A stretch of 64,000 bases of DNA from an uncultured Verrucomicrobiae bacterium (GCA_963769025.1 CAVYKI010000010.1:416001-480000), one strand, 5' to 3'; shown: positions 3,314 through 18,584, counted from the stretch's first letter. Notes: generated from the letters alone by a model not told the origin. A program made the numbers and translations.

Positions 3314-3985
3314 ATGAAACTACTGGTCATCGAAGACGAATTGAAAATCGCGAGCCTGCTGAAGAAGGGATTGCAGGAACAGGGCTTCGAAGTGGACATC
3401 AGCGGCGACGGCGAAGACGGCCTCGATCGCGCGACCACGACGCCCTACGACGCGATCGTCATCGACATCATGCTGCCCAAGCGCGACGGCCTCAGCGTGC
3501 TCCGGACCTTGCGCACGCGAAAGGTGACGGCGCCGGTGATGATCATCACCGCACGCGGCGACGTGACCGAGCGCATCGAGGGCCTGAACCTCGGCGCGGA
3601 TGATTACATGGCAAAGCCGTTCTCGATGGACGAAGTGGTCGCGCGGATTCGCGCCCTGATCCGCCGCGTCACCGGCGAGACCATCACGCTCTACAAGGTC
3701 GGCGACCTCACGATGAACCTCGTGAAGCGCGAAGTCATGCGCGGCACCCGGAAGATCCATCTCACCGCCCGCGAATTCCGCCTGCTCGAGCACCTCATGC
3801 GGCTGCCCGGCCAGGTGGTCACCCGCACGCAGCTCATCGAACGCGTGTGGGAATATCACTTCGACCCCGGGACGAACCTCGTGGACGTGTACATCCAGCG
3901 GCTGCGGCGGAAGCTCGATGACGGCGAGGACGTGAAGCTCATCCAGACCGTGCGCGGCGTCGGCTATAGCGTGACGGCAGAATAG
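3314..3985 (+). CDS. OmpR/CusR-family DNA-binding response regulator
   Basis: MKLLVIEDE, DIMLP, GADDYMAKPF, winged helix NLVDVYIQRLRRKL..TVRGVGY. Confidence 0.95.
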   Translation: MKLLVIEDELKIASLLKKGLQEQGFEVDISGDGEDGLDRATTTPYDAIVIDIMLPKRDGLSVLRTLRTRKVTAPVMIITARGDVTERIEGLNLGADDYMAKPFSMDEVVARIRALIRRVTGETITLYKVGDLTMNLVKREVMRGTRKIHLTAREFRLLEHLMRLPGQVVTRTQLIERVWEYHFDPGTNLVDVYIQRLRRKLDDGEDVKLIQTVRGVGYSVTAE

Positions 3986-3988
3986 CCG

Positions 3989-5380
3989 ATGAACGCCCAG
4001 CCGCTCAGGACGCGCCTGGTTTTGTGGACGGTGCTGGTCGGCGGGCTTTCCGTGGCGCTCTTCGGCGGAATCATCGGCCAGTCGCTGAAGCTGGCGATGC
4101 GGCGGCATCTCGACTCGACGCTGAAACGGGAGGGAAACAGCGTCTTCCAGAATGTCCAGCGGCTGGGTCATGCGATGAACTGGAGCGACCAGGCCGAGGT
4201 GGCGAAACTCTTCAGCGCGGTCATCAGCCTTTACAGCTTCGAGATCGAGGAGCCACCCGGCAAACTGGTGTACCGCTCCAGGGATCTCGGCGACACGCCG
4301 CTCCCCACTGGTCCGGAGGATTCGGTCTATACGGGTTCCGTCGGCGGTTCCGATGCCGTCAGGGTCCTGCAAATCAACAGGGGAACGATGCGCATCCGCG
4401 TCGCGGTGGATGCCAGCCCTTTGACCGAATGGGAGAAAAGCATGTGGTGGACGTACGCCATCATCATCCCACTCACGCTCGCCTTCCTCGCCGGCGGGGC
4501 GCGTTGGCTGTATGTGAAGGCGCTGAAGCCCGTGGACGACATCGTGGAGGCGGCGGAACGGATCACCGCCAAGAGCCTCGAACAACGCCTGCCGTTGACC
4601 GGCAACCGCGACGAAATCGGACATCTCACGACGGTTCTGAACCGGATGATCGACCGCCTTCAGCTCAGCTTTGAGCAGGCGCGGCGTTTCAGCGCCGACG
4701 CGTCGCACGAACTCAAGACGCCGCTCACCATCATCCGCGGCGAACTCGAGATCGCGCTGCGCTCGGGGGAAATTCCGCACGGAGTCGAGCGGACGATGCT
4801 CGACCTGCTCGACGAGACGGGGCGGCTCATCCACATCGTCGAGGGGCTGCTGCTCCTCTCGCAGGCGGATGCGGGAAAATTTCCGGTCGGCAGCGACCCG
4901 GTACCGCTCACGGAACTCATCGAGGAACTCGCGGAGGACATCGAGATCCTCGGGGACCGGCTGGAAATCGAAGTGACGCTCCAACTCGAGCCTTCCGTCC
5001 GCGTCAAAGGCAGCCCGCAGTTTCTCCGCCAGCTCGTGCTCAACCTTTTCGACAACGCGATCAAATACAACCGGCGCAGCGGCACCATCCGCTGCGAACT
5101 CACGACCGCCGCCGGCATGGCCGTCTTCCGCATCGCGAACACGGGCGAGACGATCCCGCCCGGCGATCGCGAGCGCATCTTCAACCGCTTTTTCCGCGTG
5201 GAGTCTTCGCGCACGCGGGGCGATGCCGGCGGCGGCCAGGGCCTCGGCCTGAGCATCGCCCGCGAAATCGTCCGCGCACACGGCGGCACGCTCACCATCG
5301 AAAACTCGGAGCCCGGCTGGACCATGTTCCAGTTCACCATTCCGCTTTGCGATTCCCCCGCGGGAAAAACGGATCGCTGA
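3989..5380 (+). CDS. CusS-like sensor histidine kinase (2 TM, HAMP, HisKA, HATPase)
   Basis: FSADASHELKTPL, NLFDNAIKY, GLGLSIA; starts 3 bp after the regulator. Confidence 0.95.
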   Translation: MNAQPLRTRLVLWTVLVGGLSVALFGGIIGQSLKLAMRRHLDSTLKREGNSVFQNVQRLGHAMNWSDQAEVAKLFSAVISLYSFEIEEPPGKLVYRSRDLGDTPLPTGPEDSVYTGSVGGSDAVRVLQINRGTMRIRVAVDASPLTEWEKSMWWTYAIIIPLTLAFLAGGARWLYVKALKPVDDIVEAAERITAKSLEQRLPLTGNRDEIGHLTTVLNRMIDRLQLSFEQARRFSADASHELKTPLTIIRGELEIALRSGEIPHGVERTMLDLLDETGRLIHIVEGLLLLSQADAGKFPVGSDPVPLTELIEELAEDIEILGDRLEIEVTLQLEPSVRVKGSPQFLRQLVLNLFDNAIKYNRRSGTIRCELTTAAGMAVFRIANTGETIPPGDRERIFNRFFRVESSRTRGDAGGGQGLGLSIAREIVRAHGGTLTIENSEPGWTMFQFTIPLCDSPAGKTDR

Positions 5381-5398: not shown

Positions 5399-5533
5399 CT
5401 ACTTGAGCGGATCCTTTTTGCTGCAACCGCAGCCGCCCTTGCCGGCCTTTTTCGAGCGCGCGCGCAGCACGAGATACACCACCGCGCCGAGCACCGCCGC
5501 GACGACGAGGATCTGCTGGACGGTCTCGTTCAC
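5399..5533 (-). CDS. FeoB-associated Cys-rich small membrane protein
   Basis: GTG start overlaps the feoB stop (GTGA); one TM helix followed by GKGGCGCSKK. Confidence 0.8.
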   Translation of the reverse strand: MNETVQQILVVAAVLGAVVYLVLRARSKKAGKGGCGCSKKDPLK

Positions 5534-7614
5534 TGGAAGCCGAGCAGCCGCCCGCCCTGGTAAACGACAAACGCGCCGACCCACGCGAGCACGGTCATGT
5601 AAGCGATTTGGAACAGCGGCCAGCGCCACGAGTTCGTCTCGCGCCGCACGATGGCGACGGTGCTGATGCACTGCATCGCGAGGACGTAGAAGACCATGAT
5701 CGAAAGGCACACGAGCGGCGTGAAGACGGGCGTCCCGTCGGCACGGCGCTCGGCGCGCATCTGGCTGCGGAGATCCTCATTCTCCTCATCGGCGTCCTCG
5801 ATGTTGTAAATCTGGCCCATGGTGCTCACGAAAACTTCGCGCGCGGCGAACGAGGCGACAAGGCCGATGCCGATTTTCCAATCGTAGCCCAGCGGCGCGA
5901 TGACCGGCTCGATCGCGTGCCCCATCCGCCCGCCGATGCTGTGCGCGAGGGACTCGGACGGCGTGGGATCCGGCGTCGTGGGCTTCGGATAGCTGAGCAG
6001 CGCCCAGAGGATGACGCTGAGGGCGAGGATGACCGTGCCCGCCCGGCGGAGGAACAGCACCGCACGCTCCCACATCCGCTGCACGATGCCGCGCAACACG
6101 GGCGCGCGGTAAGGCGGCAGTTCGAGCAGCAGCATGGGCGTCTCGCTGCGCAGGATCGTCTTTTTGAAAAGGCCCGCCATGACGAACGCGGCGAGGATGC
6201 CGATCAGATACATGCACAGCATCACCCCCGCCTTGCTCCACACTCCCTGCGCGGGCATGAGCAGCGAAATCATGATCGCATACACCGGGAGCCGCGCGGA
6301 GCAGCTCATCAGCGGCGCGACGAGGATGGTGACGAAGCGGTCGTTGCGGTTCTCGATCGTGCGCGTCGCCATGATGCCTGGAATCGCGCACGCGAACGAA
6401 CTCAGCAGCGGGACAAACGATTTCCCGTGCAGGCCCACGCGCGACATCATGCGGTCCATGATGAACGCGGCGCGCGCCATGTAGCCGCTGTCCTCCAGCA
6501 GCCCGAGGAAGAAAAAGAGGATCAGGATTTGCGGGAGAAATATGACGACATTGCCCACGCCGCCGATCACGCCGTCCACGACAAGGCTCTGCAGATCGCC
6601 GGGCGGAAGGTGCGCGCCTGTCCATTTTGCGAGCGCCTCCATCCCGGCGCTGATCCACTCCATCGGCGCCTGCGCGACGACGAAGATGCACACGAACATC
6701 AGCACCATCATCCCGATGAACGCGATCCAGCCCCACAGCTTGTGCGTGAGGATCTGGTCCATGTGGTCGCTGAACGTCAGCCCGTGCGAATCCTCCCCGC
6801 GACGGTGCACGACGGAAGCGCACACTTCCGACACCCACGCGTAGCGCGCATCCACCGGCGCGGCGATCGGGTCCAGCCCGCTGAGCCGCAGCCGCTCGCG
6901 CGCGGCATGGATCTCCGCGAGCAGCGCGGCATTCCCTTTCACCTCCGCGCCAAGGCGTTCGTCTTCGAGCGAAAGGAGCAGCATCGCCTCCGGGCGCGTG
7001 CTTCCCGCGTGGCAATCGATGATGCGCGACAGCGCGGCGACCTCGCGTTCGAGCACGATGGGGAGCTGCGCCTTGCGGTCGGAAACGTGGAGCGTGGGAC
7101 GGGAGAGCGCCTGCTTGAGCTCGATGAGCCCCTGCCCGCGGCTCGCGACCATCGGGATCACCGGCACGCCCAGGCTGTCGCGCAACGCGAGCAGATCGAT
7201 CGACAGCCCGCGCTTTTCCGCGACGTCCACCATGTTCAGCGCGACGATGACGGGGATGTCCAGTTCGAGAAATTGCGCGACGAGGTAGAGATGCCGGTCG
7301 AGGTTCGACGCATCGAGCACCGCGATGATCGCATCCGGCCGCGGCGTCCCGGGCACGCGGCCCAGCAGCAAATCGCGCGACACCGCCTCGTCCGGCGAAC
7401 GCACCTGCAGGCTGTAGCTGCCCGGCAGATCGAGCAGTTCCATCGCCTCGCCGTGGCTGCCAAAAAATCGCCCCGTCTTTTTTTCCACCGTCACGCCGGG
7501 ATAGTTCCCCACTTTCTGACGCAGGCCCGTGAGGGCGTTGAAAATCGTGCTCTTCCCCGTGTTCGGATTTCCGGCGATGGCGATGCGTCGGAAGAGTTTT
7601 GGAAGGTCACCCAT
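5530..7614 (-). CDS. feoB: Ferrous iron transporter B
   Basis: GNPNTGKS, NYPGVTVE, DLPGSY, NMVD G-motifs; gate motifs LEDSGYMARAAF, MSCSARLPVY. Confidence 0.98.
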   Translation of the reverse strand: MGDLPKLFRRIAIAGNPNTGKSTIFNALTGLRQKVGNYPGVTVEKKTGRFFGSHGEAMELLDLPGSYSLQVRSPDEAVSRDLLLGRVPGTPRPDAIIAVLDASNLDRHLYLVAQFLELDIPVIVALNMVDVAEKRGLSIDLLALRDSLGVPVIPMVASRGQGLIELKQALSRPTLHVSDRKAQLPIVLEREVAALSRIIDCHAGSTRPEAMLLLSLEDERLGAEVKGNAALLAEIHAARERLRLSGLDPIAAPVDARYAWVSEVCASVVHRRGEDSHGLTFSDHMDQILTHKLWGWIAFIGMMVLMFVCIFVVAQAPMEWISAGMEALAKWTGAHLPPGDLQSLVVDGVIGGVGNVVIFLPQILILFFFLGLLEDSGYMARAAFIMDRMMSRVGLHGKSFVPLLSSFACAIPGIMATRTIENRNDRFVTILVAPLMSCSARLPVYAIMISLLMPAQGVWSKAGVMLCMYLIGILAAFVMAGLFKKTILRSETPMLLLELPPYRAPVLRGIVQRMWERAVLFLRRAGTVILALSVILWALLSYPKPTTPDPTPSESLAHSIGGRMGHAIEPVIAPLGYDWKIGIGLVASFAAREVFVSTMGQIYNIEDADEENEDLRSQMRAERRADGTPVFTPLVCLSIMVFYVLAMQCISTVAIVRRETNSWRWPLFQIAYMTVLAWVGAFVVYQGGRLLGFQ

Positions 7615-7617
7615 GGC

Positions 7618-7884
7618 TCAGATTCGTTGCACGCGGATGCCCGCGGCTTCCGCCTTGCGCAGCGAAATGTGCGCGCCGCGGACCTTGAATTCCATCGGGT
7701 CGCCCAGCGGCGCAAAACGCACGACCTCGACCACCGTCCCGACCGTGAAGCCCATTTCCATCACCCGGCCGCGCATCGATCCGGGCACTTCCACGGCGAG
7801 CACCTTCGCGCGCTGTCCCGGTTGGAGCGCACTGAGAGGTTCCGCCTCGCTCCGGGGCTCCGCTGTCTCCGCGTTGTCACTCAT
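7618..7884 (-). CDS. feoA: Ferrous iron transport protein A
   Basis: RVMEMGFTVG..APLGDPMEFKVRG..LRKAEA. Confidence 0.95.
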   Translation of the reverse strand: MSDNAETAEPRSEAEPLSALQPGQRAKVLAVEVPGSMRGRVMEMGFTVGTVVEVVRFAPLGDPMEFKVRGAHISLRKAEAAGIRVQRI

Positions 7885-7890
7885 GGCGGC

Positions 7891-8133
7891 TCAGACTGCG
7901 AACCGCTCCACTTCCACGTGGTCGCAAAGTTCACGGCCCAGCGCCAGGCGCGTCCCCATCAGCAGGCAGATCACCGCAGCGCCGTCCGCGATTTTCCGCA
8001 CCACCACGTGGTCGCGGAAGCCCAGTTCACGCAGCCGAACGCAGTGCGGACAGTCCGGGCAGATGTGCCGGACACGCAACTGCTCGCCGCATTTTGCGGT
8101 CGCGAGCGTCAGTTTCGGAGTGGGGAAAAGCAT
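7891..8133 (-). CDS. feoA: Second FeoA-family protein with CPDCPHC motif
   Basis: RLRELGF..GTRLALGRE FeoA pattern; first gene of the feo operon. Confidence 0.8.
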   Translation of the reverse strand: MLFPTPKLTLATAKCGEQLRVRHICPDCPHCVRLRELGFRDHVVVRKIADGAAVICLLMGTRLALGRELCDHVEVERFAV

Positions 8134-8156
8134 CGGTGTATTTCTTACTACAGTGC

Positions 8157-8199
8157 CTGAGATTGGGTCGCAAGAACAATTGCGATTGAGTCGCAATTG
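8157..8199. promoter_or_regulatory. Tandem Fur-like iron-responsive operator upstream of feoA
   Basis: Perfect inverted repeat CAATTGCGA-TTGAG-TCGCAATTG (8177-8199) plus a degenerate copy TGAGATTGGGTCGCAA (8158-8173). Confidence 0.65.
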
Positions 8200-8302
8200 G
8201 CCTCGCGGACAGGTGAAATACCCGCCCGGAGGCACCGGATTAGGCGGTTTGTCCGCAATTTTTCCGATGTCGCACGCGCGGGAGCCGGACCACTGCCCGC
8301 AG

Positions 8303-9507
8303 TCAGCGGGAAGTACGGACTAGGCGCGCTTTGGGTGCCTGTGGGCGTCGGGAGGCAGTGAGCCACGGATGCGCGAGCGCGCCGGATGCGGACGCGCGTG
8401 CGGAAGCTTCCACCGCCAGCAGCGACGCGAGAAAATCCGCAGCGACGTCGGCTTCCGTTTTCGGGAGCTTGGAGAGGCGGCGGACAAACGGCTGCAGCGA
8501 CGTGCGACGGATCGCGGGGCGGAAACGGAGCGCGCCGTCTTGCTCGAAATAGGCGGAGCGGTAGAGGGCCGCGTCGATCATCGCGGGCGGCAGCGGCCCG
8601 CGCAGCCGGGTGATTTCGAGGAGGTGTTCGTAGTTCAGGGTGAGGTCGAGCAGATCGTCCGCGCCGCGGACCTCGCGCCATTTCTCCTCGTGGATGTTCT
8701 TCTCCCCTTCGATCTCGGACGAACCGGGCAGGCTGTTCGCATAACCCCAGAGCGTGGCGTAGGTGCCGTCGAGCGCTGTGTCGTTCAACTGCCGAGCCTG
8801 CCACACGGTGCCGTAGCGTCCGCTGCCGAGGACCTTTTCGAGCGCGTACTTTCCGGCGATGATCGTGCCAGGCTTGAATTGCTCGGCCTTTTCAACGGTC
8901 TCGTCCGCCTTCACGCTTTCGGCGAGCGGGAGTTCGATGGCTTCCTTGCCCGTGCTGAACTCGCGGTACTTTTTCGCCGCGGCTTTGCGCGGGCTGAAGA
9001 GGCGGCGGCCGGTGAGCATTTCAAAGACGGTGCAGCCGAGGCTCCACAGGTCCACGGCTGTGCTCAGCGGTGCGCCGATGATCAGTTCCGGCGCCATGTA
9101 TTCGCGCGTGCCGAAGGTGGAGCCCTGCTTGAAGCGGTTGTCGGCGCTGCCGAGGTCGGCGAGGCGCGCGGTGCCGGTGCGGGCGTCGTAGAGGATATTG
9201 TCGGGCTTGATGTCCGTGTGCGCGTAGCCGCAGCGGTGCAGGCGCTCGGTGGCGCGCAGGAGTTCGCGGGTCACGCGCTTCACGCGGGCGAGCGGCAGCG
9301 GCTCCGCGATCGAGCGCGTCGTCGAGGCTGCGCCCGTGCTTTTCGTAGGCCATGCACACGTGGCCGTCGTGGAGGAATGCCTCGTGCAGTGCCGATGATG
9401 TCCGGGCACTCGCCGAGTTCGCGGCGGAGGAGCTTGTGCAGCGACACCTCGAAGACAGCCCCCTTGCTGTAGCGGCGGCGCTGGATTTTGAGCGCGATTT
9501 TCTCCAC
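8303..9507 (-). CDS. SRPK-like (CMGC) Ser/Thr protein kinase with rearranged subdomain order; two apparent frameshifts (~9390, ~9301)
   Basis: Rebuilt: IALK, alphaC Glu (AVFE), HVCMAYE, PLPLARVK, HTDIKPDN, ADLG, TREYMAPE, DLWSLGC..FEMLTG, HPWL. GSGRYG loop is internal. Confidence 0.85.
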
Positions 9508-9513
9508 GGCGAA

Positions 9514-10857
9514 TCAGTTGTCCGTGTTGTTCACGAATGCGCGGCGGATTTCGTAGAGCACGCGGCCGATGAGCCGGATGTCCTCGGTGATGATGCTCGC
9601 CTCGCCGGTCATGTCCTGTTTGAATTGCAGCCGCTTTTTGAAGCTCGTGACGAGCGGATACGGGATGTCCACGAGCACGAGGTTCGCCCCGTCGCGCGCG
9701 ACCATGGAGACGGACTGCACGCGGCCGGTCACGAGGCCGAATTCACGGTACGGGAAGTCGGCAAAGCGGATGCGGACCTTCTGGCCTGGCTTGATTTTTC
9801 CCGCGCCGCCCTGGTTCACCGACATGCGGCCGATGAGGCGCGAGGTCTCGGGCACGATGAGGAACACCTGGCGCCCGGCGGTCACGAACTGCTGGTCGCT
9901 CCAAAAATCGTAGAAGGCGACCACGCCGTCCGCGGGCGCGCGCAGGACGTAGTCCGCCTCCCACACGTCGATTTCGCCGCGGAGCTTGTTGAGGCTCACG
10001 CGCAGCTTTTCGCGCGCGAGCGTGAGCGCCTCGTGGCGGTCGTGCTCGATGTTGCGGAGTTCGCGCTCCATGCGCGACGCCTCGATCTCGGCATCGGTGA
10101 GATTCTTTTGCATGAGCCCGTCGCCGCGCATCTGGGAAAGCACGGCCATTTCCTGCTCCTGCAATTGCGCGGTGCTGATCGAGTCGCGGCGGTGCAGCAC
10201 TTTCAGCCGGTCGTATTTTTCCTGCGCGAGTTCGAGTTCGCGCCGGGTCATCTGCTGTTGCGCGCGCATGGCGGTGATCTGGCTCTGCTTGCCGGTGAGT
10301 TGCTGGCGCAGGAGGTCGCCGGCCTTCTGCGCGTAAGTGTCGGCGAACACGGTGCGGAACTGGTTGTACGCCCCGAGGAATTCCGCGTAGCCGTCCTGGA
10401 GGCGTCCGAGGCCCTCCTCGGGTTTGAATTCGATGTCGAATGTCGCAGCGTCGCCCGCGACGGCCGGTGCGAGACGCGCGAGCTTTTCCTTCAGCGCGAG
10501 AGCGACGGCTGCCTGCGAGGGGCTTTGGATCACCGCGAGGATGTCGCCCTTTTTCACCTTCTGCTTCTCGCTGGCCTGCAGGCTTTCGAGGTGTCCGCTT
10601 TGGCGCGCGACGACTTCCACGACGGGCTGCGTGCCGGTCACGCTGAGGCGCGCGGTGATCGTGTCGGGATACTTGATGATGACCGAAAGGATGAGCAGCA
10701 GCGTGAGGACCGCGGCGAGCATCGTGGTGCCGGATTGCAGCAGCCAGTGCGGCGGGCGGCCCATGAATTCGCGCACATCCGCGTTCATGAGCGCGAGCGG
10801 CTGCGGCGGCGGGATCACCGTGAGCGTGCGCTGGGGTTGAGGTTCGTCAGCCGGCAT
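9514..10857 (-). CDS. HlyD-family membrane fusion protein
   Basis: N-terminal TM, VKKGDIL lipoyl half-motif, long coiled coil, LRAPADG, FPYREFG. Confidence 0.92.
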   Translation of the reverse strand: MPADEPQPQRTLTVIPPPQPLALMNADVREFMGRPPHWLLQSGTTMLAAVLTLLLILSVIIKYPDTITARLSVTGTQPVVEVVARQSGHLESLQASEKQKVKKGDILAVIQSPSQAAVALALKEKLARLAPAVAGDAATFDIEFKPEEGLGRLQDGYAEFLGAYNQFRTVFADTYAQKAGDLLRQQLTGKQSQITAMRAQQQMTRRELELAQEKYDRLKVLHRRDSISTAQLQEQEMAVLSQMRGDGLMQKNLTDAEIEASRMERELRNIEHDRHEALTLAREKLRVSLNKLRGEIDVWEADYVLRAPADGVVAFYDFWSDQQFVTAGRQVFLIVPETSRLIGRMSVNQGGAGKIKPGQKVRIRFADFPYREFGLVTGRVQSVSMVARDGANLVLVDIPYPLVTSFKKRLQFKQDMTGEASIITEDIRLIGRVLYEIRRAFVNNTDN

Positions 10858-13079
10858 GGGTCGACGAAACCTCCAGTTCGAGTTGGTTGCGCACGAGCCG
10901 GTAGTACGCGCCGGCCTTCGAGACGAGATCGCCGTGCTGCCCGGTCTCCACGATGCGGCCCTGATCGATGACGACGATCTGGTCCGCGTCGCGCACGGTG
11001 CTGAGGCGGTGCGCGATGACGACGACCGTGCGGCCCTGCGCAAATTCACGGAGCGCCGCGATCACCGCGCTCTCGTTCTTCGTGTCGAGAGCGCTCGTGG
11101 CTTCGTCGAGGAAAAGGAAATCGGGATTGCGGTAGATCGCGCGCGCGAGCAGCAGGCGCTGGCGTTCGCCGCCGGAGAGTCCCTGCCCTTCCGCGCCGAC
11201 GACCGTCTCCGCGCCATTCGGCTGGTTGCGCACAAATTCCTCCATGCTCGCGAGCCGGATCGCCGCGCCCATGCGCATCGGATCGATCGTCTGGCTGCCC
11301 GGCACGACGTTCCTCGCAAACGTCCCGGAAAAAATGAATCCGTCCTGCATCACCACGCCGCAGCGCGCGCGCCACGCGTGTCCGTCGAGCGCACCGAGCG
11401 GCACATTGTCCACGTATATTTCGCCGCCGGTGGGGCGGTACAGGCCGAGCAGAAGTTTCAGCAGCGTCGTCTTGCCGCTGCCGCTCGCGCCGACGATCGC
11501 CGTCACTTTTCCCTGCGGGATGACGAGGTTGATGTCCTTCAGCACATCCGCGCGTCCGGCGCCGGGATAGCGGAAGCTGAGGCCGGAGATCGGTGAGCTT
11601 TCGCGACTCGGGAAAGTCGGACGTCGCGTGCGTTTCGTCCTCGTCCTCGTCCTTGTGGTCGTAGATTTCCTGCATCCGCTCGAGGCTCAGCCGCGCGTCC
11701 TGCGCGCTGTAGATGAATTCGATGATGCGGCCGATCGGCGAGTTGAGCTGTCCGACGATGTACTGCGTCGCGATCATCATGCCGAAGGTCATCTCGCCCT
11801 GCAGGACCGCGCGCGCGGCGAGGAATGAGATGAGGATGTTGCGGATGTTGGAAAGGACGGTGACTCCGAGGCGCTGCGTCTGCTTGAGCGCGAGGCTCTT
11901 TGCTTCGAGCTGGTAGTTGCGCATCGCGATGTGCTCCCAGTCCCACCGCTTGTCGCGCTGCAGGCCCTGGATTTTGATCTCGGGCATGCCGGCGACGATT
12001 TCCATCAGCGTGTCGCGCTCCTTCGCCTCGAGGACGAAGCGCTTGAAGTCGAGCATCCGGCGTTGCTTGAGAAAAATGAGGAGCCAGCCGACGGCGAGTG
12101 CCGAGAGGATCACGAAGGTGCGAGGATTTGCCAGCTGTAGAGTGCGAGCACCATCGCGAAGACGACGAACGTGAGCAGCGAGAAGACCACGTCGAGCGAG
12201 GACGACATCAGGAAGTCCTTCACGCGCCGGTGATCGCCGATGCGCTGCATGATGTCGCCGGCGGTGCGGCTGTCGAAGAACGGGCAGCGGGAGCCGCAGC
12301 AGCTTGCTCAGAAAATCCGCGATCATCGCGATGCTCACGCGCGAGCCGATGTGCAGGAGCAGCCAGCTCCGGATCATGTCCGCGGCGGTCTGGCTGAGCG
12401 CGAGCATCAGTTGCGCGGCGAGCAGGAGGTAGATGAAATGCAGATCGAGATTCCCGATGCCGTAGTCCACGACCGCCTGCGAGAGGAAGGGCAGGATCAG
12501 CTCCAACCCGAGACCGACGAACATCCCGACTCCGACTTGCAGGAGGAGTTTTTTGTAAGGCCGGAGGTAGTTGAAAAAGAACGCAAGCCCCTTGCGGCCG
12601 CGCTCCGCATCCTTGCGGCCCGAGGCGCTCTGCTCATGGAACGCGGGGGTGGTTTCCAGCAGCAGGTAGATTCCCGGCGCGTCGGCGGAAATGGGGGTTC
12701 CCGGCGGCGAACTCGCGCGGATGAATTCCTCCGGCGAATAGTCCACAAGGCCGTGCGCCGGGTCCGCGACGCGCACCTTGTTCCGCGTGAACTCATACAC
12801 CACGACGAAGTGATCCGCCTGCCAGTGTGCGATGCACGGCAGCGGCGCCTCGTCGCGCAGACGCATGTAGCTGAGGCGCACGGCGAGCGAGCGCAGGCCG
12901 ACTTTCTCCGCCGCCTCGGAAATGCCGAGCAGCGACACGCCGCCCTTGCCGATGTGGCAGAGTTCGCGCAGCCATCCCTGCGAAAATTCACGGCCGTGAT
13001 GCGTGCAGATCATCCGCAGCGCCGCGGGGCCGCAGTCCATGGCGTCGAGCTGCGGGTGGAACGGGAAACGTTTCTTCAT
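10847..13079 (-). CDS. Peptidase C39-containing ABC transporter (PCAT); frameshifts ~12282, ~12120, ~11590
   Basis: QLDAMDCGPA (catalytic Cys), HFVVVY..DPA (His/Asp), TM domain, GASGSGKT, LSGGERQR, LDEATSALD. Confidence 0.93.
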
Positions 13080-13094: not shown

Positions 13095-14700
13095 CTAAAA
13101 GGAAAGATTGTGGCGCTGGGCGATGGTGCCATCGAGCTGGCCGAGCGTGGACCATGCGCCGAGGATGGCGAGGCGGGCTTCGAGCACGCGCATCTCGGAG
13201 GTGCGGAGATCCTCCTCGGCCTCCCGAAGCAGGCGCACGGGCACCGAGCCCTTCGCGATGCTGGAGGAGCTGCTCCTGCCACTTTTCCATGCTCGCCTTT
13301 TGCGAATGCCGCGCGGCGGCGAGCTGCTGCCGGCCGAACGCGATGGCACGGCAAAGTTCGCTGATGCGCTGACGCAGCCGCTGCTCGGCCTGCTCGCGGA
13401 GGACCTCGCTGCGCGCGAGTTCGGCCCGCGCGGTTTCGAGTTGCGCGCGTTCGGCGCGGAAAGTCCACGGCAGCGAAATCCGGGCGAGGGCGACACCTTC
13501 CCAGCCCCTGCCGCCGCTGCCGTCGGAGCCCGTCTTGTTCGACGCGCCGGAAAACTCCACCTCCAGCTTGGGCAGCATGTTGTTGCGCGCGCGACGGAGT
13601 TCCACTTCGCGGCGCTCGATTTCGTTGATGAGCAGCACGGCGATCGGCGCGTTTTCGAGCGCGCGCTGGATCGAGACGGCCGGGTTCGGATCGGCGGCAG
13701 GCATCGAGGCTTCGCGGATCGGTTCAAAGACCAGCCTCGATGCTGACACTCCCTGCGGTGCGCCGATCGCAAACCACAGTTCGTCCACGCGGTCGGACAC
13801 CAATTTGGTCGCGGACAGCCAGCGCTCCTGCGCGGTGGAGACGAGGACTTCCGCCTCCAGCACGTCGAGCTTCGATGCGGCACCCGCGGCCTGCCGTGCC
13901 TTTGCATCCTCGAGCACCGACTGCGCGCGGCGCAGGCTCGCGAGGAAATTTTTCTCGCTCAGCGCCGCGACCGCCGCGGCGAAATAGCCGGATTCGGCCG
14001 CACGGAGCATTTCGAGGATCTCCGCATTGCGCGTGGCCTCGGCCTGGTCGCGCAGCAGTTCGGCGATGCGGATGCCTGCGCGGTTCACACGCGGGTCGAG
14101 GCCGCGCAGCAGTTGCTGGCGCACCGTCAGCGTGTATTCCGAAGTCGTGCTGTTGACGTAGTCGTTGCGGAAATCGCCGGTGCTCGTCGCCACCTGCCCG
14201 GCTTGAAAGTCCACCTCGGTTCCCGTCACGAACCTTTTCGACACGCCGCCGCTCCCTGCGGCCTGCGACCATGTCCGGCCCTCGGGCGTGTCCGTCCGGA
14301 CCGTGCCGGTGAAGTTCGGATCGAATTGCGCCTTCGCAGTCTCGATGCCCGCTTTCGCGGTGCGTGCGGCGAAAGATGCGTCGCGGATCCGGAAGTTGCG
14401 CTGGATCCCGTAAAGCACGCAGTCGTCGAGCGTGAGCCGTCCGCTGGAGGCGATGTGCACCTCGGCAGGCGCGGCGCTCGGCAGACTGACCCGCGCGGGA
14501 GCGGGCGTCTGTTTCGCAATCGGGCGCGGCGCGGCGGTCCCGATGGCGCGTCCGTCCTCAGCTCCGGGCGCGATGGAAAATGCGCCGAAAAGGATCACCG
14601 CGATCGTCGCGGCGAGCGGCACCCCGGAGCCGCGGCGGCGCGGGCGGGGCTGCACACGTGGCGTGCTGGGCGTGCTCGGGCGGAAGTCAGAAGGTGTCAT
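13095..14700 (-). CDS. TolC-family outer-membrane efflux protein; frameshift ~13256
   Basis: LTLDDCVLYGIQRN, QQLLRG, GAASKLDVLEAE, NMLPKL helical-barrel pattern; upstream of the PCAT and HlyD genes. Confidence 0.85.
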
Positions 14701-14761
14701 CCAGTCGAAAGGCGATCGTGCAGTGCGGAATGCAGCATTGGGAGAGCAGGATACCAGCCTA

Positions 14762-14803
14762 GAAAAAGAAAAAGCAGGAAGGCACAAAGTCCTTCCTGCT
14801 TTT
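14762..14803 (-). terminator. Intrinsic terminator between precursor gene and tolC
   Basis: 13-bp perfect stem AAAAGCAGGAAGG / CCTTCCTGCTTTT, 8-nt loop, U-rich tail on the minus strand. Confidence 0.8.
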
Positions 14804-14876: not shown

Positions 14877-15092
14877 CTACCAACCGCAGGGCTTCGGAGC
14901 GCAGCCGCGGCGGGACTTGCTGCCGGACTTCTTGCTCTTGGAGCCGCACTTCACCTTGGATTTCTTGCTCTTGCTCTTCTTGCACTTCACGGTCTTCACT
15001 TTCGTGACCTTGCAGCCGCCGCCGCCGGTGACAACTGCGGGTGCGTTGATTGCGTCGGACGCGAACTGGTCGAGGATGCTGATCTTCTTCAT
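14877..15092 (-). CDS. Putative double-glycine-leader precursor peptide with Lys/Ser/Cys-rich core
   Basis: MKKISILDQFASDAINAPAVVTGG|GGCKVTKVKTVKCKKSKSKKSKVKCGSKSKKSGSKSRRGCAPKPCGW; first gene of a PCAT operon; consistent AAG/AGC/TCC codon use; A/C-rich leader. Confidence 0.85.
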   Translation of the reverse strand: MKKISILDQFASDAINAPAVVTGGGGCKVTKVKTVKCKKSKSKKSKVKCGSKSKKSGSKSRRGCAPKPCGW

Positions 15093-15570: not shown

Positions 15571-16215
15571 ATGCCTATCCACGAAACAAACCGCAACCCT
15601 TCCTCCGGGCCACTCCGCTGGTCAGAGCGAGCGACAGTCCCAGTCTGCCCGGACGCGGAATCCAAACCGCTCCGCCGTTCCCGCCGGGCATTCACCCTCG
15701 TTGAAACCTTGGTTGCGGCGACGGTGGTCATCATCGCGCTCGGCGCGATCTTTATGGTGAGCAGCCGATGCATGGGGATCGTCCGCTCCTCGCAGAGCGT
15801 GGGCGTCGCCTCGGCCATTTTGCAGGAGCGCATGCAGCAGTTGCAGGCCACGGATTGGGAAACGCTGACTGACAGCGATTCCTACACGGATCAGGTGTGG
15901 ACCGATCCGGAGGATGGGACGACGGAAAATGTCGCCGGCCTCCTCAAGAGCGCGACCCTTTCGGCGGGCGCGTTCCAATTGCAAAACGCCGTGGAAACGA
16001 TCCGCGTGTCGGCATACCGGCCAGTCGCGGTCGCCGCCGCGGAACCGGCAGCGATCGTTGCGAGCCGGACGGCCACCACGCCGACTCTCACATCCGCGAC
16101 GACAAATCTCGGGGATGAGAAAATGGTCCGCATCGATGTCCGGCTCACGTGGACCGAAGGCAAGGCAGGCCTCCAGCGCTCACTCGGATTATCGGCCATC
16201 GTGGCCCGCAGATAG
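15571..16215 (+). CDS. Prepilin-type (PilV-like) minor pilin
   Basis: RRA|FTLVETLVAA type III signal followed by a hydrophobic helix. Confidence 0.8.
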   Translation: MPIHETNRNPSSGPLRWSERATVPVCPDAESKPLRRSRRAFTLVETLVAATVVIIALGAIFMVSSRCMGIVRSSQSVGVASAILQERMQQLQATDWETLTDSDSYTDQVWTDPEDGTTENVAGLLKSATLSAGAFQLQNAVETIRVSAYRPVAVAAAEPAAIVASRTATTPTLTSATTNLGDEKMVRIDVRLTWTEGKAGLQRSLGLSAIVARR

Positions 16216-16224
16216 GACGCTCCT

Positions 16225-16842
16225 ATGAAAACACCACTCCCACGCCTCCGCCGCAAAGCCGGTTTCACGCTCGTCGAGATGCTGATCGGCGCCACAGCGG
16301 CCTCGATCTTCCTCGGAGGACTGATGACCGGGAGCATCGCGCTCCAACGCTCGCTTTCCGCGAACGATCAGCTCGCCCGCGCCCAATCGGATATCCTCCG
16401 CGTGTCCGATTACATGACGCGGGACATCCGCAACGCGACAACCATCAACACGGCGGCGACGGGCTCAGTGCTCCTCACGGTGACGACCGGGGACTATTAC
16501 AACCGGAACGGCACTCCGAACAACCCCGCGGACGACGTTCCCAATTCCCCCGTCCTCGGGCGCACCACGGCGAGCTACGGAGCCAGCCCCGTGAGCATCC
16601 GCTACCTGAAGAGCGGGACGCGCATCGCCCGCGAAGTCACCCGGATCGACGCCGGTGTCTCCACCACGACCACGACTTGGATCGCCGACAATGTGGACAC
16701 TCTCAGCGTGGCTGCGGATGCGAATGGCAACATCACATTCACGTCGGCGACTGCCATGAACTACCGCGTCCGGAAGGCAGGATTCGAAGTCCCCTCGCTC
16801 TCCTTCGTGATGTCTTCAAAACCCCGAAACTCAACACCGTAA
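16225..16842 (+). CDS. Prepilin-type (PilW/PulJ-like) minor pilin
   Basis: KAG|FTLVEMLIG, DYMTRDIRNA. Confidence 0.85.
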   Translation: MKTPLPRLRRKAGFTLVEMLIGATAASIFLGGLMTGSIALQRSLSANDQLARAQSDILRVSDYMTRDIRNATTINTAATGSVLLTVTTGDYYNRNGTPNNPADDVPNSPVLGRTTASYGASPVSIRYLKSGTRIAREVTRIDAGVSTTTTTWIADNVDTLSVAADANGNITFTSATAMNYRVRKAGFEVPSLSFVMSSKPRNSTP

Positions 16843-16847
16843 ATACC

Positions 16848-18584
16848 ATGCTCCTGTTCCCGAAAAAATCCAAGTCCACGGAAGGCGCCGTGCTCGTCGC
16901 CTCCATCCTCACCGTCGCAGTCCTGGCATCGATTTCCGCCGGCGTCCTGCTCACCGTCGGGGCCAAGCACCACGACAGCTACCACGCGGCAGGCTGGCGG
17001 GAAGCACTCACCGCCGCCGAATCCGGAGTCGAGCGGACCATGGCCGAGCTGCGCACCGCCATCGACGATCCAGCCAACGCATGGACCGGCTGGGTGGTCG
17101 TCGATTCGGCAGGGAAAACGGCGGCGTTACAGCAGATCAATCGCACTGGCCGCTGGCCGGCCGGCTACACCCTGCGCATGAACGCCACGCTGCCTCCGCA
17201 GGCCGGTGAGAGCCGGCAGACCCAGTACGCTGTGCTGGTCGATGTCCCCTCCACGCTGGCCACGACATCGAGGCGGTGGAACCAGTCGTATCGCATCCGC
17301 TCCACCGGCGTCACGGCGGTGCCCGGGGCGGCGATCGCCGCGGTGGACAAGCGCGACACACAGTTGCGGCGCCTGAGCCTCTTCATGGACCGGACGGTGG
17401 GCTTTCCCGGCAGCGGCTCGCAGCTCGCGAGGCCGCAGGCGACCAGGACCATCGAGGTCATCGCCAAGCCCGAGAGCGTTTACAAATACGGGGTGACTGC
17501 GGAGATCAACTTCAAGCTGAACAAGAAGACCATCATCGACGGCTATAATTCCAACTACCCGGAGAGTTCGACCAACGGCAAATACGATCCGACGAAACGG
17601 ACGGCAAACGGCGGCACGATCCTGGCCAACCGCTGGAAGAAGAAGCCGAAGCCGGATCAGGCGGCTGAAAAATTCGATGTCGGCAAGGCCACGATCTATG
17701 GCGACCTGATGGTCAAGGGCAGCATGAAGAACGTGAAGAATTTCGAGAACGTGCAGGGCAACAAGCTCACCAACGTGAGCATCGACACGCCGACGAACGT
17801 CGCGCCGGTGTGGACCTCGGTGACGGCAAACATCGCCACGTTGGACGGCAAAATCCCCGATGCACTGAAGGCGACCTACAAGACCGCAGAAAAGAATGCC
17901 AAGGCGGGCGGCCCGGTCGCCCAATTCGAGGCCAAGAGTGCCACGGCGGCGGCCGAACTGGCTGCCAAGGGGATGGAACTGCCCGGCGGCGCCGACCCTT
18001 CCAACCCGACGCGCTACAAAGTCGAGAAGATCGGCGTGGACAAGAAGACGGAATCGCTCGTCCTGAGCAATCCGCCCGGAGTGTCCGAAAGCTGGATTGA
18101 AATCTGGGTGACGGAGGAGATGAAGATCGAAAAGGGCGGCACGATGTTTGTCTCCAATGGCGTCCACGCGACGATTTACCTCGAAGGCAAGAAGGTCGAA
18201 ATCAAGGACACCAAGGCGGACAAGGGGGGCTTCATCATCGAAAGCGGCTTCGCCGGAGACCTGCAACTCATCGGCATCGAGGCAAAGGAAGACACCAAGA
18301 AGGAAACCGACGACGAGTATTCGCCGAAAAAGCGCAGCGGCAAGATCTCGATCTCCGATGCCGACTTCACCGGCGTGATCAATGCCCCGGACTGGGACGT
18401 GGACTTCAAGCCGAAGGACTGGGACAAGGATGACACCATCTACGGTGCCCAACTCTATGGCTCGGTCCTGGGACGCAAGGTCAAGATCGGCAACGGTGCG
18501 GACTACCACTACGACGCGGCGGTCACGGAGATCGGCAGCGTCACGATGTATTCGACCGCCGGCTGGAACGAGCTCGAGCGGTAG
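16848..18584 (+). CDS. PilX-like minor pilin with large Lys-rich C-terminal beta domain
   Basis: EGAVLVASIL..ALTAAESGVE PilX N-terminus; YRIRSTG; C-terminal GVINAP..YGSVLG..HYD. Confidence 0.75.
   Translation: MLLFPKKSKSTEGAVLVASILTVAVLASISAGVLLTVGAKHHDSYHAAGWREALTAAESGVERTMAELRTAIDDPANAWTGWVVVDSAGKTAALQQINRTGRWPAGYTLRMNATLPPQAGESRQTQYAVLVDVPSTLATTSRRWNQSYRIRSTGVTAVPGAAIAAVDKRDTQLRRLSLFMDRTVGFPGSGSQLARPQATRTIEVIAKPESVYKYGVTAEINFKLNKKTIIDGYNSNYPESSTNGKYDPTKRTANGGTILANRWKKKPKPDQAAEKFDVGKATIYGDLMVKGSMKNVKNFENVQGNKLTNVSIDTPTNVAPVWTSVTANIATLDGKIPDALKATYKTAEKNAKAGGPVAQFEAKSATAAAELAAKGMELPGGADPSNPTRYKVEKIGVDKKTESLVLSNPPGVSESWIEIWVTEEMKIEKGGTMFVSNGVHATIYLEGKKVEIKDTKADKGGFIIESGFAGDLQLIGIEAKEDTKKETDDEYSPKKRSGKISISDADFTGVINAPDWDVDFKPKDWDKDDTIYGAQLYGSVLGRKVKIGNGADYHYDAAVTEIGSVTMYSTAGWNELER

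Follow-up and report, generated by a model that had tools for sequence, protein, structure and literature searches.

The stretch of DNA analysed here (64,000 nucleotides from an uncultured Verrucomicrobiae bacterium, GCA_963769025.1 CAVYKI010000010.1:416001-480000, hereafter called the window) encodes on its minus strand, between positions 8303 and 9507, an SRPK-like serine/threonine kinase in which the motifs of the kinase fold follow one another in a permuted order. The first 45 or so residues of an ordinary kinase, which contain beta1, the Gly-rich loop and beta2, appear to have been relocated into a C-lobe insert that separates helices alphaF and alphaG, so that the chain begins at beta3. 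The permutation would be non-circular, with the order b-a-c and not a-b-c. To our knowledge, the order of the segments of a protein kinase is regarded as fixed. We favour the reading that the protein is an active SRPK-like kinase, that the relocated hairpin completes its N-lobe in cis and that it likely phosphorylates a peptide encoded in the same operon; to this reading, taken as a whole, we give a probability of roughly 0.7.

The kinase gene starts with a GTG codon at 9507, opening V-E-K-I-A-L-K-I-Q, and the stop codon of the preceding gene, which encodes an HlyD-family protein, lies six bases upstream (9514–9516). The GTG start and the beta3 strand V-E-K-I-A-L-K occupy 9487–9507, with the codon of the ATP-binding lysine at 9487–9489. 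Because the HlyD stop is in the frame of the kinase, there is no room for an N-terminal Gly-rich loop, and the gene starts at subdomain II directly after an in-frame hlyD stop, as the original prediction made from this sequence had stated. That the stop is in frame is a matter of chance in the window: a consistent in-frame read-through from HlyD into the kinase was considered and rejected, as the frames differ in five of six related loci compared by hand (L013, L014 and L016–L019).

In the window, two extra bases distribute the gene over three reading frames. The long reading-frame piece (9307–8306) begins after the second frame change and contains, in this order, the catalytic loop HTDIKPDN (9197–9220), the DLG motif, which is the SRPK-type form of DFG (9149–9157), the APE region, FEMLTGRRLF of helix alphaF, a stretch of about 120 residues, and the segment from NYEHLLEI of helix alphaG through to H-P-W-L. 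Delimited as the 120 amino acids between FEMLTGRRLF and NYEHLLEI, the insert is encoded by 8636–8995. Within it, at 8795–8878, lies the relocated beta1/Gly-rich loop/beta2 hairpin, FKPGTIIAGKYALEKVLGSGRYGTVWQA, with GSGRYG at 8810–8827. The hairpin segment comes after HTDIKPDN, DLG and FEMLTGRRLFSP and ahead of NYEHLLEI, about 130 residues past the catalytic loop; a subdomain-I-like segment between subdomains IX and X is thus found just where it had been noted earlier. The Pfam kinase profile PF00069 matches the open reading frame with an E-value of 9.6e-34 and 117.4 bits (cut-off 31.7), the match covering only positions 95–216 of the 263 in the profile. All catalytic residues expected of a eukaryotic protein kinase, from the beta3 lysine to the subdomain XI arginine, are present in the window kinase; the Gly-rich loop is kept as a motif, but its place directly N-terminal of beta3 has changed. 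In this genome the kinase has no close paralogue and the insert occurs only once, so there is no duplicated gene that could have confused the assembly.

The affiliation of the kinase was examined with an intact relative, P0002. When proteins of solved structure were searched with phmmer, Sky1p was the best match (E-value 2.5e-33), followed by SRPK2 and SRPK1 (around 1e-23) and then by DYRK, HIPK, PRP4 and CLK (around 1e-22 or weaker). Alignment to Sky1p is in three permuted pieces: residues 218–244 of P0002 match residues 19–45 of Sky1p, which include the Gly-rich loop, residues 44–174 match 95–239, and residues 289–384 match 244–339. From residue 174 to 289 of the query, Sky1p advances from 239 to 244 only, which makes the insert about 110 residues long relative to Sky1p. 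The same pattern is obtained with BLASTP against P0197, an SRPK-like kinase of canonical order, where residues 2–192 align with 55–262, 293–382 with 258–347 and 219–240 with 30–51. With BLASTP, the insert segment is aligned separately to the Gly-rich loop of two canonical-order relatives and, judging from these sequence alignments, the likeness between them is not due to chance.

Structural comparison points to the same kinases. The top Foldseek matches of a model of P0002 are SRPK1, SRPK2 and Sky1p, and alignment of the model to the SRPKs with VIA-align gives Z-scores of about 30 and a root-mean-square deviation of 1.8–2.2 Å over 271–275 residues, with 30–32% sequence identity. In these alignments residue 1 of the model falls on residue 103 of SRPK1 and on residue 181 of Sky1p, where beta3 begins. 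Matches in the ESM Atlas are to generic eukaryotic CMGC clusters only. An SRPK/Sky1 affiliation had been proposed from the motifs, and the best scores, in sequence and in fold, indeed belong to Sky1p, SRPK1 and SRPK2. The large spacer that SRPKs have between the catalytic loop and DLG is absent, with about 9 residues leading from H-T-D-I-K-P-D-N-I-L-Y to A-D-L-G. Among SRPK-like proteins of canonical order, P0194 has several hundred residues at this point, while P0197 has a short spacer. The comparisons support a kinase that is SRPK-like by sequence and CMGC by fold. With the SRPKs the permuted family has in common DLG for DFG, a short activation segment, the alignment from alphaG to H-P-W-L and, through the operon peptide described below, a link to sequences resembling Arg/Ser (RS) repeats. 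It differs from them in its b-a-c order, in lacking the spacer between catalytic loop and DLG, in the insert of about 110 residues between alphaF and alphaG, in being bacterial and in the location of its gene in an exporter operon.

The permuted order is a property of a whole family. A protein search of a collection of 5.8 billion proteins returned 590 matches, of which the best 120 were examined; these relatives are mostly intact, 380–420 residues long and 46–87% identical to the window copy. A Gly-loop pattern is located 105–135 residues past the HxD motif in 118 of the best 120. The beta3 motif is recognisable in the first 26 residues of 113, and in none of these 113 is there a Gly-rich loop ahead of it; in four of the 120, a chance Gly-loop pattern occurs near residues 30–39, past beta3. 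At genome level the picture is the same, with no Gly-rich loop in an open frame upstream of beta3 and the loop past HxD in all 27 loci, and the relocated order holds even in members from these loci that are just 35–40% identical. When 1.84 billion cluster representatives were searched with a profile, some 30 clusters (at 50% identity) matched once over the full length; the matches that followed were ordinary kinases, aligned in several pieces.

The original prediction would have fallen if homologues had a normal N-terminal Gly-rich loop or if the gene order were a product of misassembly. Homologues share the motif order in the proportions just given, none has such an N-terminal loop, and misassembly of the gene order is excluded, since assemblies made independently agree on it. 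Two-loop intermediates, with a Gly-rich loop in both places, were not seen among the sequences inspected, though no search aimed at longer proteins was made. One protein of 716 amino acids, P0121, has an N-terminal atypical kinase domain like ABC1/APH (Pfam E-values 7e-6 and 4e-5), followed by a permuted kinase that begins F-A-L-K-I-Q at residue 335, with no Gly-rich loop ahead of beta3; gene calling may have joined two separate genes here.

The labels of the 27 loci are of Verrucomicrobiota (for example Chthoniobacteraceae and Verrucomicrobiaceae), apart from one Planctomycetota, and two are of Akkermansia. The Akkermansia muciniphila labels, on the metagenome-assembled genome records of loci L033 and L036, look doubtful, because the gene content there resembles that of other environmental Verrucomicrobiota loci. 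The hosts of the permuted family belong to a bacterial group of soil and freshwater.

Conservation was analysed in an alignment of 162 distinct, full-length Verrucomicrobiota sequences of the family, all with the relocated order. The glycines G227 and G229 and the tryptophan W235 of the relocated segment are 100% conserved, as are H96, D98, K100, N103, D117 and E140. Conserved to 98–99% are K7 (the beta3 lysine, 98%), E20 (the alphaC glutamate), D152 (the subdomain IX aspartate) and R370 (the subdomain XI arginine), while V234 and the DLG glycine G119 are each 97% conserved. In a 77-sequence alignment (A1) the mean column identity is 54%. Gly-loop and catalytic residues that hardly vary, in spite of a column identity of about 54%, are what one expects of an enzyme that is active and continues to use its Gly-rich loop.

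For the fold, AlphaFold2 was run on P0002 with 77 family sequences. The protein is predicted as one rigid body, with a mean predicted local distance difference test score (pLDDT) of 92 and a predicted template modelling score (pTM) of 0.89. The insert is predicted to form four short helices and a beta-hairpin (strands 220–228 and 232–239), the hairpin block having a pLDDT of 95–98. As the pTM reaches 0.89 despite a disordered tail of 30 residues, nearly all other residues, those of the insert included, should lie within about 2 Å expected error of the core. As a control, the window's own product of 326 amino acids (P0001), which is without the N-lobe, was folded with the same family alignment. 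Without the N-lobe, the pLDDT of the Gly-loop block is 78, against about 96 in P0002; that of the segment after the hairpin is 77, against 96; and that of the activation segment is 79/81, against 97/93. The hairpin strands have about 92 without the N-lobe and 95–98 in P0002, and the remaining C-lobe 91–98 and mostly 92–98, respectively. In kinases the activation segment touches the N-lobe. The control fits a location of the hairpin tip at the N-lobe and ATP cleft, as weak evidence from the model.

In the proposed arrangement, the insert would reach back from the C-lobe and its hairpin would complete the five-stranded N-lobe sheet, beside beta3 of the same chain, so placed that the relocated Gly-rich loop would clamp ATP as in ordinary kinases. 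For this docking in cis we estimate a chance of roughly three in four. The support is indirect and comes from the pTM of 0.89 with the high confidence of the hairpin, from the invariant G-x-G and tryptophan, and from the lower confidence of the Gly-loop tip in the control that lacks the N-lobe. Of the original prediction of a non-circular permutation, the motif order therefore stands, in 162 of 162 sequences, whereas completion of the N-lobe by the hairpin is something that we infer.

The main alternative to docking in cis is a domain-swapped dimer, in which each insert would complete the N-lobe of its partner. The linkers predicted in the secondary structure of P0002, about 45 residues on either side of the hairpin, are long enough to permit a swap; the monomer model, however, is confident as a single rigid body and needs no second chain, and we consider supply of the hairpin in trans rather improbable. 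Still less probable, in our view, is a kinase that works without a Gly-rich loop and in which the segment in the insert serves for regulation or docking or is a relic. There is precedent for such kinases: the Toxoplasma WNG kinases, as reported in PMC6442604, are of the eukaryotic protein kinase type and have no N-terminal Gly-rich loop. Also, the confidence of the hairpin stays high even without the N-lobe. The WNG kinases have lost their loop, whereas the permuted family keeps it invariant elsewhere in the chain. Against the relic reading, the G-x-G, the valine and tryptophan that follow it and the surrounding motif are 97–100% conserved in sequences that are otherwise about 50% identical, which fits nucleotide binding rather than a relic.

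The two extra bases that break the window copy are located, with respect to relatives, at 9389–9392 (near 9390) and at 9302–9305 (near 9303), both on the minus strand. At both sites metagenome contig L093, with 94% identity over this stretch, is one base shorter, and its frame reads through. Contigs of related strains from sequencing runs X1, X2 and X4 have one base fewer at 9390 or 9391, and one base fewer at 9303 was found in both of the X1 contigs and likewise in X2. None of the sequencing runs scanned held more than 14% of the sampled words; the contigs that cover the frameshift sites come from relatives, and two X3 contigs that are 100% identical to the window stop short of the sites. In the same operon, the frame also changes once in the TolC gene (near 13250) and once in the ABC exporter gene (near 11600). 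Elsewhere in the source assembly, which consists of 13 contigs with an estimated completeness of 83%, the rpoB gene is split into nine pieces and rpoC into several, in differing frames (G000:C3:124523-132440). An organism with an rpoB so broken would not be viable, so the assembly must be ridden with insertions and deletions. As rpoB is equally broken in the same assembly, the two frameshifts in the window kinase are almost certainly assembly errors rather than signs of gene decay. Given the many single-base insertions and deletions, any frameshift or apparent pseudogene in this genome needs confirmation with accurate reads.

There is very little probability that gene decay has made a pseudogene of the window copy, or that its motif order is an artefact of assembly. 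The kinase does carry two frameshifts, the TolC and ABC genes carry more, and reads from the window's own sample were not found among the runs scanned; against this stand the essential genes rpoB and rpoC, which are equally broken, and a motif order that is identical across 162 independent sequences.

Several points weigh against the reading that we favour or limit it. The hairpin strands keep a pLDDT of about 92 in the control, and the hairpin is thus also held by the insert itself, which makes the control weak with regard to docking on the N-lobe. The site of the hairpin was deduced from confidence scores of the model, not from coordinates or from a map of predicted aligned errors. Direct-coupling analysis (153 sequences, effective number 88) gave mostly noise, with top pairs that looked phylogenetic; a first run had been dominated by gap artefacts, and the only pair between beta3 and the insert in the top 100, residues 8 and 215, ranks 29th, from too few sequences. 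When residues 1–60 and the hairpin segment 205–250 were predicted as a complex, the score was 0.28 (mark 0.32), in a run without controls that is evidence neither way. By VIA-align, PfCLK3, PRPF4B and DYRK1A come within 2 Z units of the SRPKs, so that the fold alone indicates CMGC and not SRPK in particular. The window kinase copy itself is not an open reading frame, and a real lesion, or a pseudogene in this one strain, is unlikely. Finally, the kinase activity and the phosphorylation of the peptide are inferred from context.

Some clues to the origin of the permutation come from three AT-rich metagenome contigs (31–46% GC), which encode SRPK-like kinases of canonical order (L109:520-1833, L111:2720-3961 and L112:172-1407) with 29–33% identity to the family from end to end. 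They share with the permuted family the motifs L-G-x-G-R-F-S-T-V-W and N-Y-x-H-L-L and have an insert at the same site between alphaF and alphaG. They differ from it in having the Gly-rich loop at the N-terminus, followed by V-A-I-K-V, and in the nature of the insert, which is acidic, of low complexity and without a hairpin. These kinases are candidates for the lineage that gave rise to the permuted family. A scan of viral contigs with one of the canonical-order relatives gave one weak match. The presence of an insert at the same site in canonical relatives suggests that in the ancestor the loop between alphaF and alphaG already tolerated insertions. The 5' segment of the gene may have been copied into this loop, and the original at the N-terminus lost later.

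A conserved operon, which ends with the kinase gene, has the order peptide, TolC, C39-peptidase ABC exporter, HlyD, kinase; in the window, all these genes are on the minus strand, as is the kinase, and they are tightly spaced. The HlyD-family membrane-fusion protein is encoded by 9514–11049 (PF13437, E-value 3.4e-15; TIGR01843, E-value 1e-31), with an uncertain start. The C39-peptidase ABC exporter (PCAT) is encoded by 10847–13079 (PF03412, E-value 4.1e-30; PF00005, E-value 3e-31; also TIGR03796 and TIGR01193), and a TolC-like outer-membrane protein, again with an uncertain start, by 13098–14770 (TIGR01844, E-value 1.9e-13). A precursor peptide of 71 amino acids, with a leader ending V-T-G-G, is encoded by 14877–15092. 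Between the peptide and TolC genes, at 14770–14803 on the same strand, there is a terminator-like hairpin of 13 base pairs with a T-rich tail, found by a consensus scan only, which returned 13 sites where 7.5 were expected from shuffled sequences; it could serve as an attenuator, so that much more peptide than machinery would be made.

In 24 of the 27 genome loci, the HlyD gene immediately precedes that of the kinase. The genes are arranged differently in L020 and L039, and L037 comes without upstream DNA. PCAT and TolC are found in the related clusters either upstream or, in the case of PCAT, after the kinase. The cluster brings together all components of a PCAT export system, namely a C39 ABC transporter, HlyD, TolC and a precursor whose leader is of the double-glycine type. 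In the C39 domain with D-C-G-P, the ABC ATPase, HlyD, TolC and the double-glycine leader, the system agrees with bacteriocin export of the PCAT/NHLP type, while it differs in NCBIfam matches that lie below the curated cut-offs, in an unclassified cargo rich in lysine, serine and glycine and in a protein kinase that is fixed in the operon. As the NCBIfam equivalog cut-offs are not reached, the exporter is placed in no named subfamily.

Precursor peptides of the same type number 22 in all, from the window and from 20 of the 27 loci, including loci where the kinase is 35–40% identical; judged by gene order, the remaining seven loci seem to break off short of the expected position of the peptide. 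The peptides matched no Pfam or NCBIfam family. The core of the window peptide has 47 amino acids, with 18 lysines or arginines, 10 serines or threonines, 5 cysteines, no acidic residues and 15 dipeptides of a basic residue with serine or threonine. Pooled, the cores consist of 23% lysine, 22% serine, 20% glycine, 7% arginine, 7% cysteine and less than 1% acidic residues, and each contains 7–22 of these dipeptides. The cores at L016:8298-8462 and L019:8288-8443 are made up of R-T and R-T-H-R repeats and have no cysteines, in contrast to the K-S repeats with cysteines of the others, and their product may differ in chemistry. In L020, two tandem precursor genes (3744–3965 and 4361–4582) come after the kinase. 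Kinase (E-value below 1e-100) and peptide are found in the same five of 41 related genomes (G000, G006, G007, G011 and G022), a co-occurrence that is not a statistical test, because the genomes are kin.

SRPKs phosphorylate serines in Arg/Ser repeats. By analogy, the permuted kinase would phosphorylate multiple serines and threonines of the basic, RS-like core in the cytoplasm, after which the exporter would cut the leader behind G-G and secrete the core. The secreted product could then carry phosphates, or phosphorylation could hide the charge of a strongly cationic peptide until export, and the conserved cysteines at both ends of the core may form disulfides outside the cell. The kinase could instead act on the exporter or on other proteins of the cell, or itself be cargo, as it is linked to the peptide by gene neighbourhood and co-occurrence only. 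We think this unlikely, since the cores are repeats of basic residues with serine or threonine, the type of sequence that SRPKs use as substrate, and the kinase has no double-glycine leader.

A different route, that of the lanthipeptide synthetases, was also considered. According to PMC10604976 and PMC12639078, the kinase domains of class III/IV synthetases (LanKC, LanL) and kinases acting on peptides that are made by ribosomes and modified after translation (RiPP kinases, such as the cyanobactin kinase domain) are serine/threonine kinases that phosphorylate a ribosomal precursor encoded nearby. In contrast to LanKC/LanL, the 385-residue protein described here has no room for a lyase or cyclase, and its kinase is of the CMGC/SRPK type and permuted. 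Against the class III and IV lanthipeptide synthetase models it scores 51.7 bits (cut-off 650) and 26.8 bits (cut-off 575), through the kinase core only, and the cluster showed no gene for a lyase or cyclase. The lack of lyase and cyclase and the scores far below cut-off make a lanthipeptide route unlikely.

On either side of the operon lie genes of other kinds. Past the kinase, after a gap of 68 bases, two FeoA-like genes and FeoB for the uptake of ferrous iron occupy 5530–8235 on the minus strand; such neighbours were not seen in the related loci. Upstream of the peptide gene, divergent from it on the plus strand at 15571–18584, are genes with prepilin-type N-terminal motifs (F-T-L-V-E) and one for a large secreted protein. 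Motifs read by eye suggest a cluster for type II secretion or pseudopilins.

No literature was found on a kinase with a relocated Gly-rich loop, on SRPK-like kinases of Verrucomicrobia or on peptides of this kind, in a search that covered subscription journals little. Few folds in biology have been studied as much as that of the protein kinases. A family with the order described here, conserved and seemingly active, would mean that the C-lobe can supply the Gly-loop hairpin and that the N-lobe sheet can be built from non-contiguous parts. The family offers a natural test case for the evolution of folds by permutation, for the engineering of split kinases and for structure predictors, and the insert in the same loop of canonical-order relatives hints at the route of the rearrangement. 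We give about even odds to the fuller proposal, that a permuted kinase which still completes its N-lobe tailors undescribed, exported RS-like peptides by multiple phosphorylation before secretion, as a bacterial counterpart of SRPKs acting on RS domains or protamines. An SRPK-like enzyme, RS-like secreted peptides and a dedicated exporter together point to a new ribosomal peptide product of the Verrucomicrobiota, which would consist of poly-phosphorylated or charge-masked cationic peptides.

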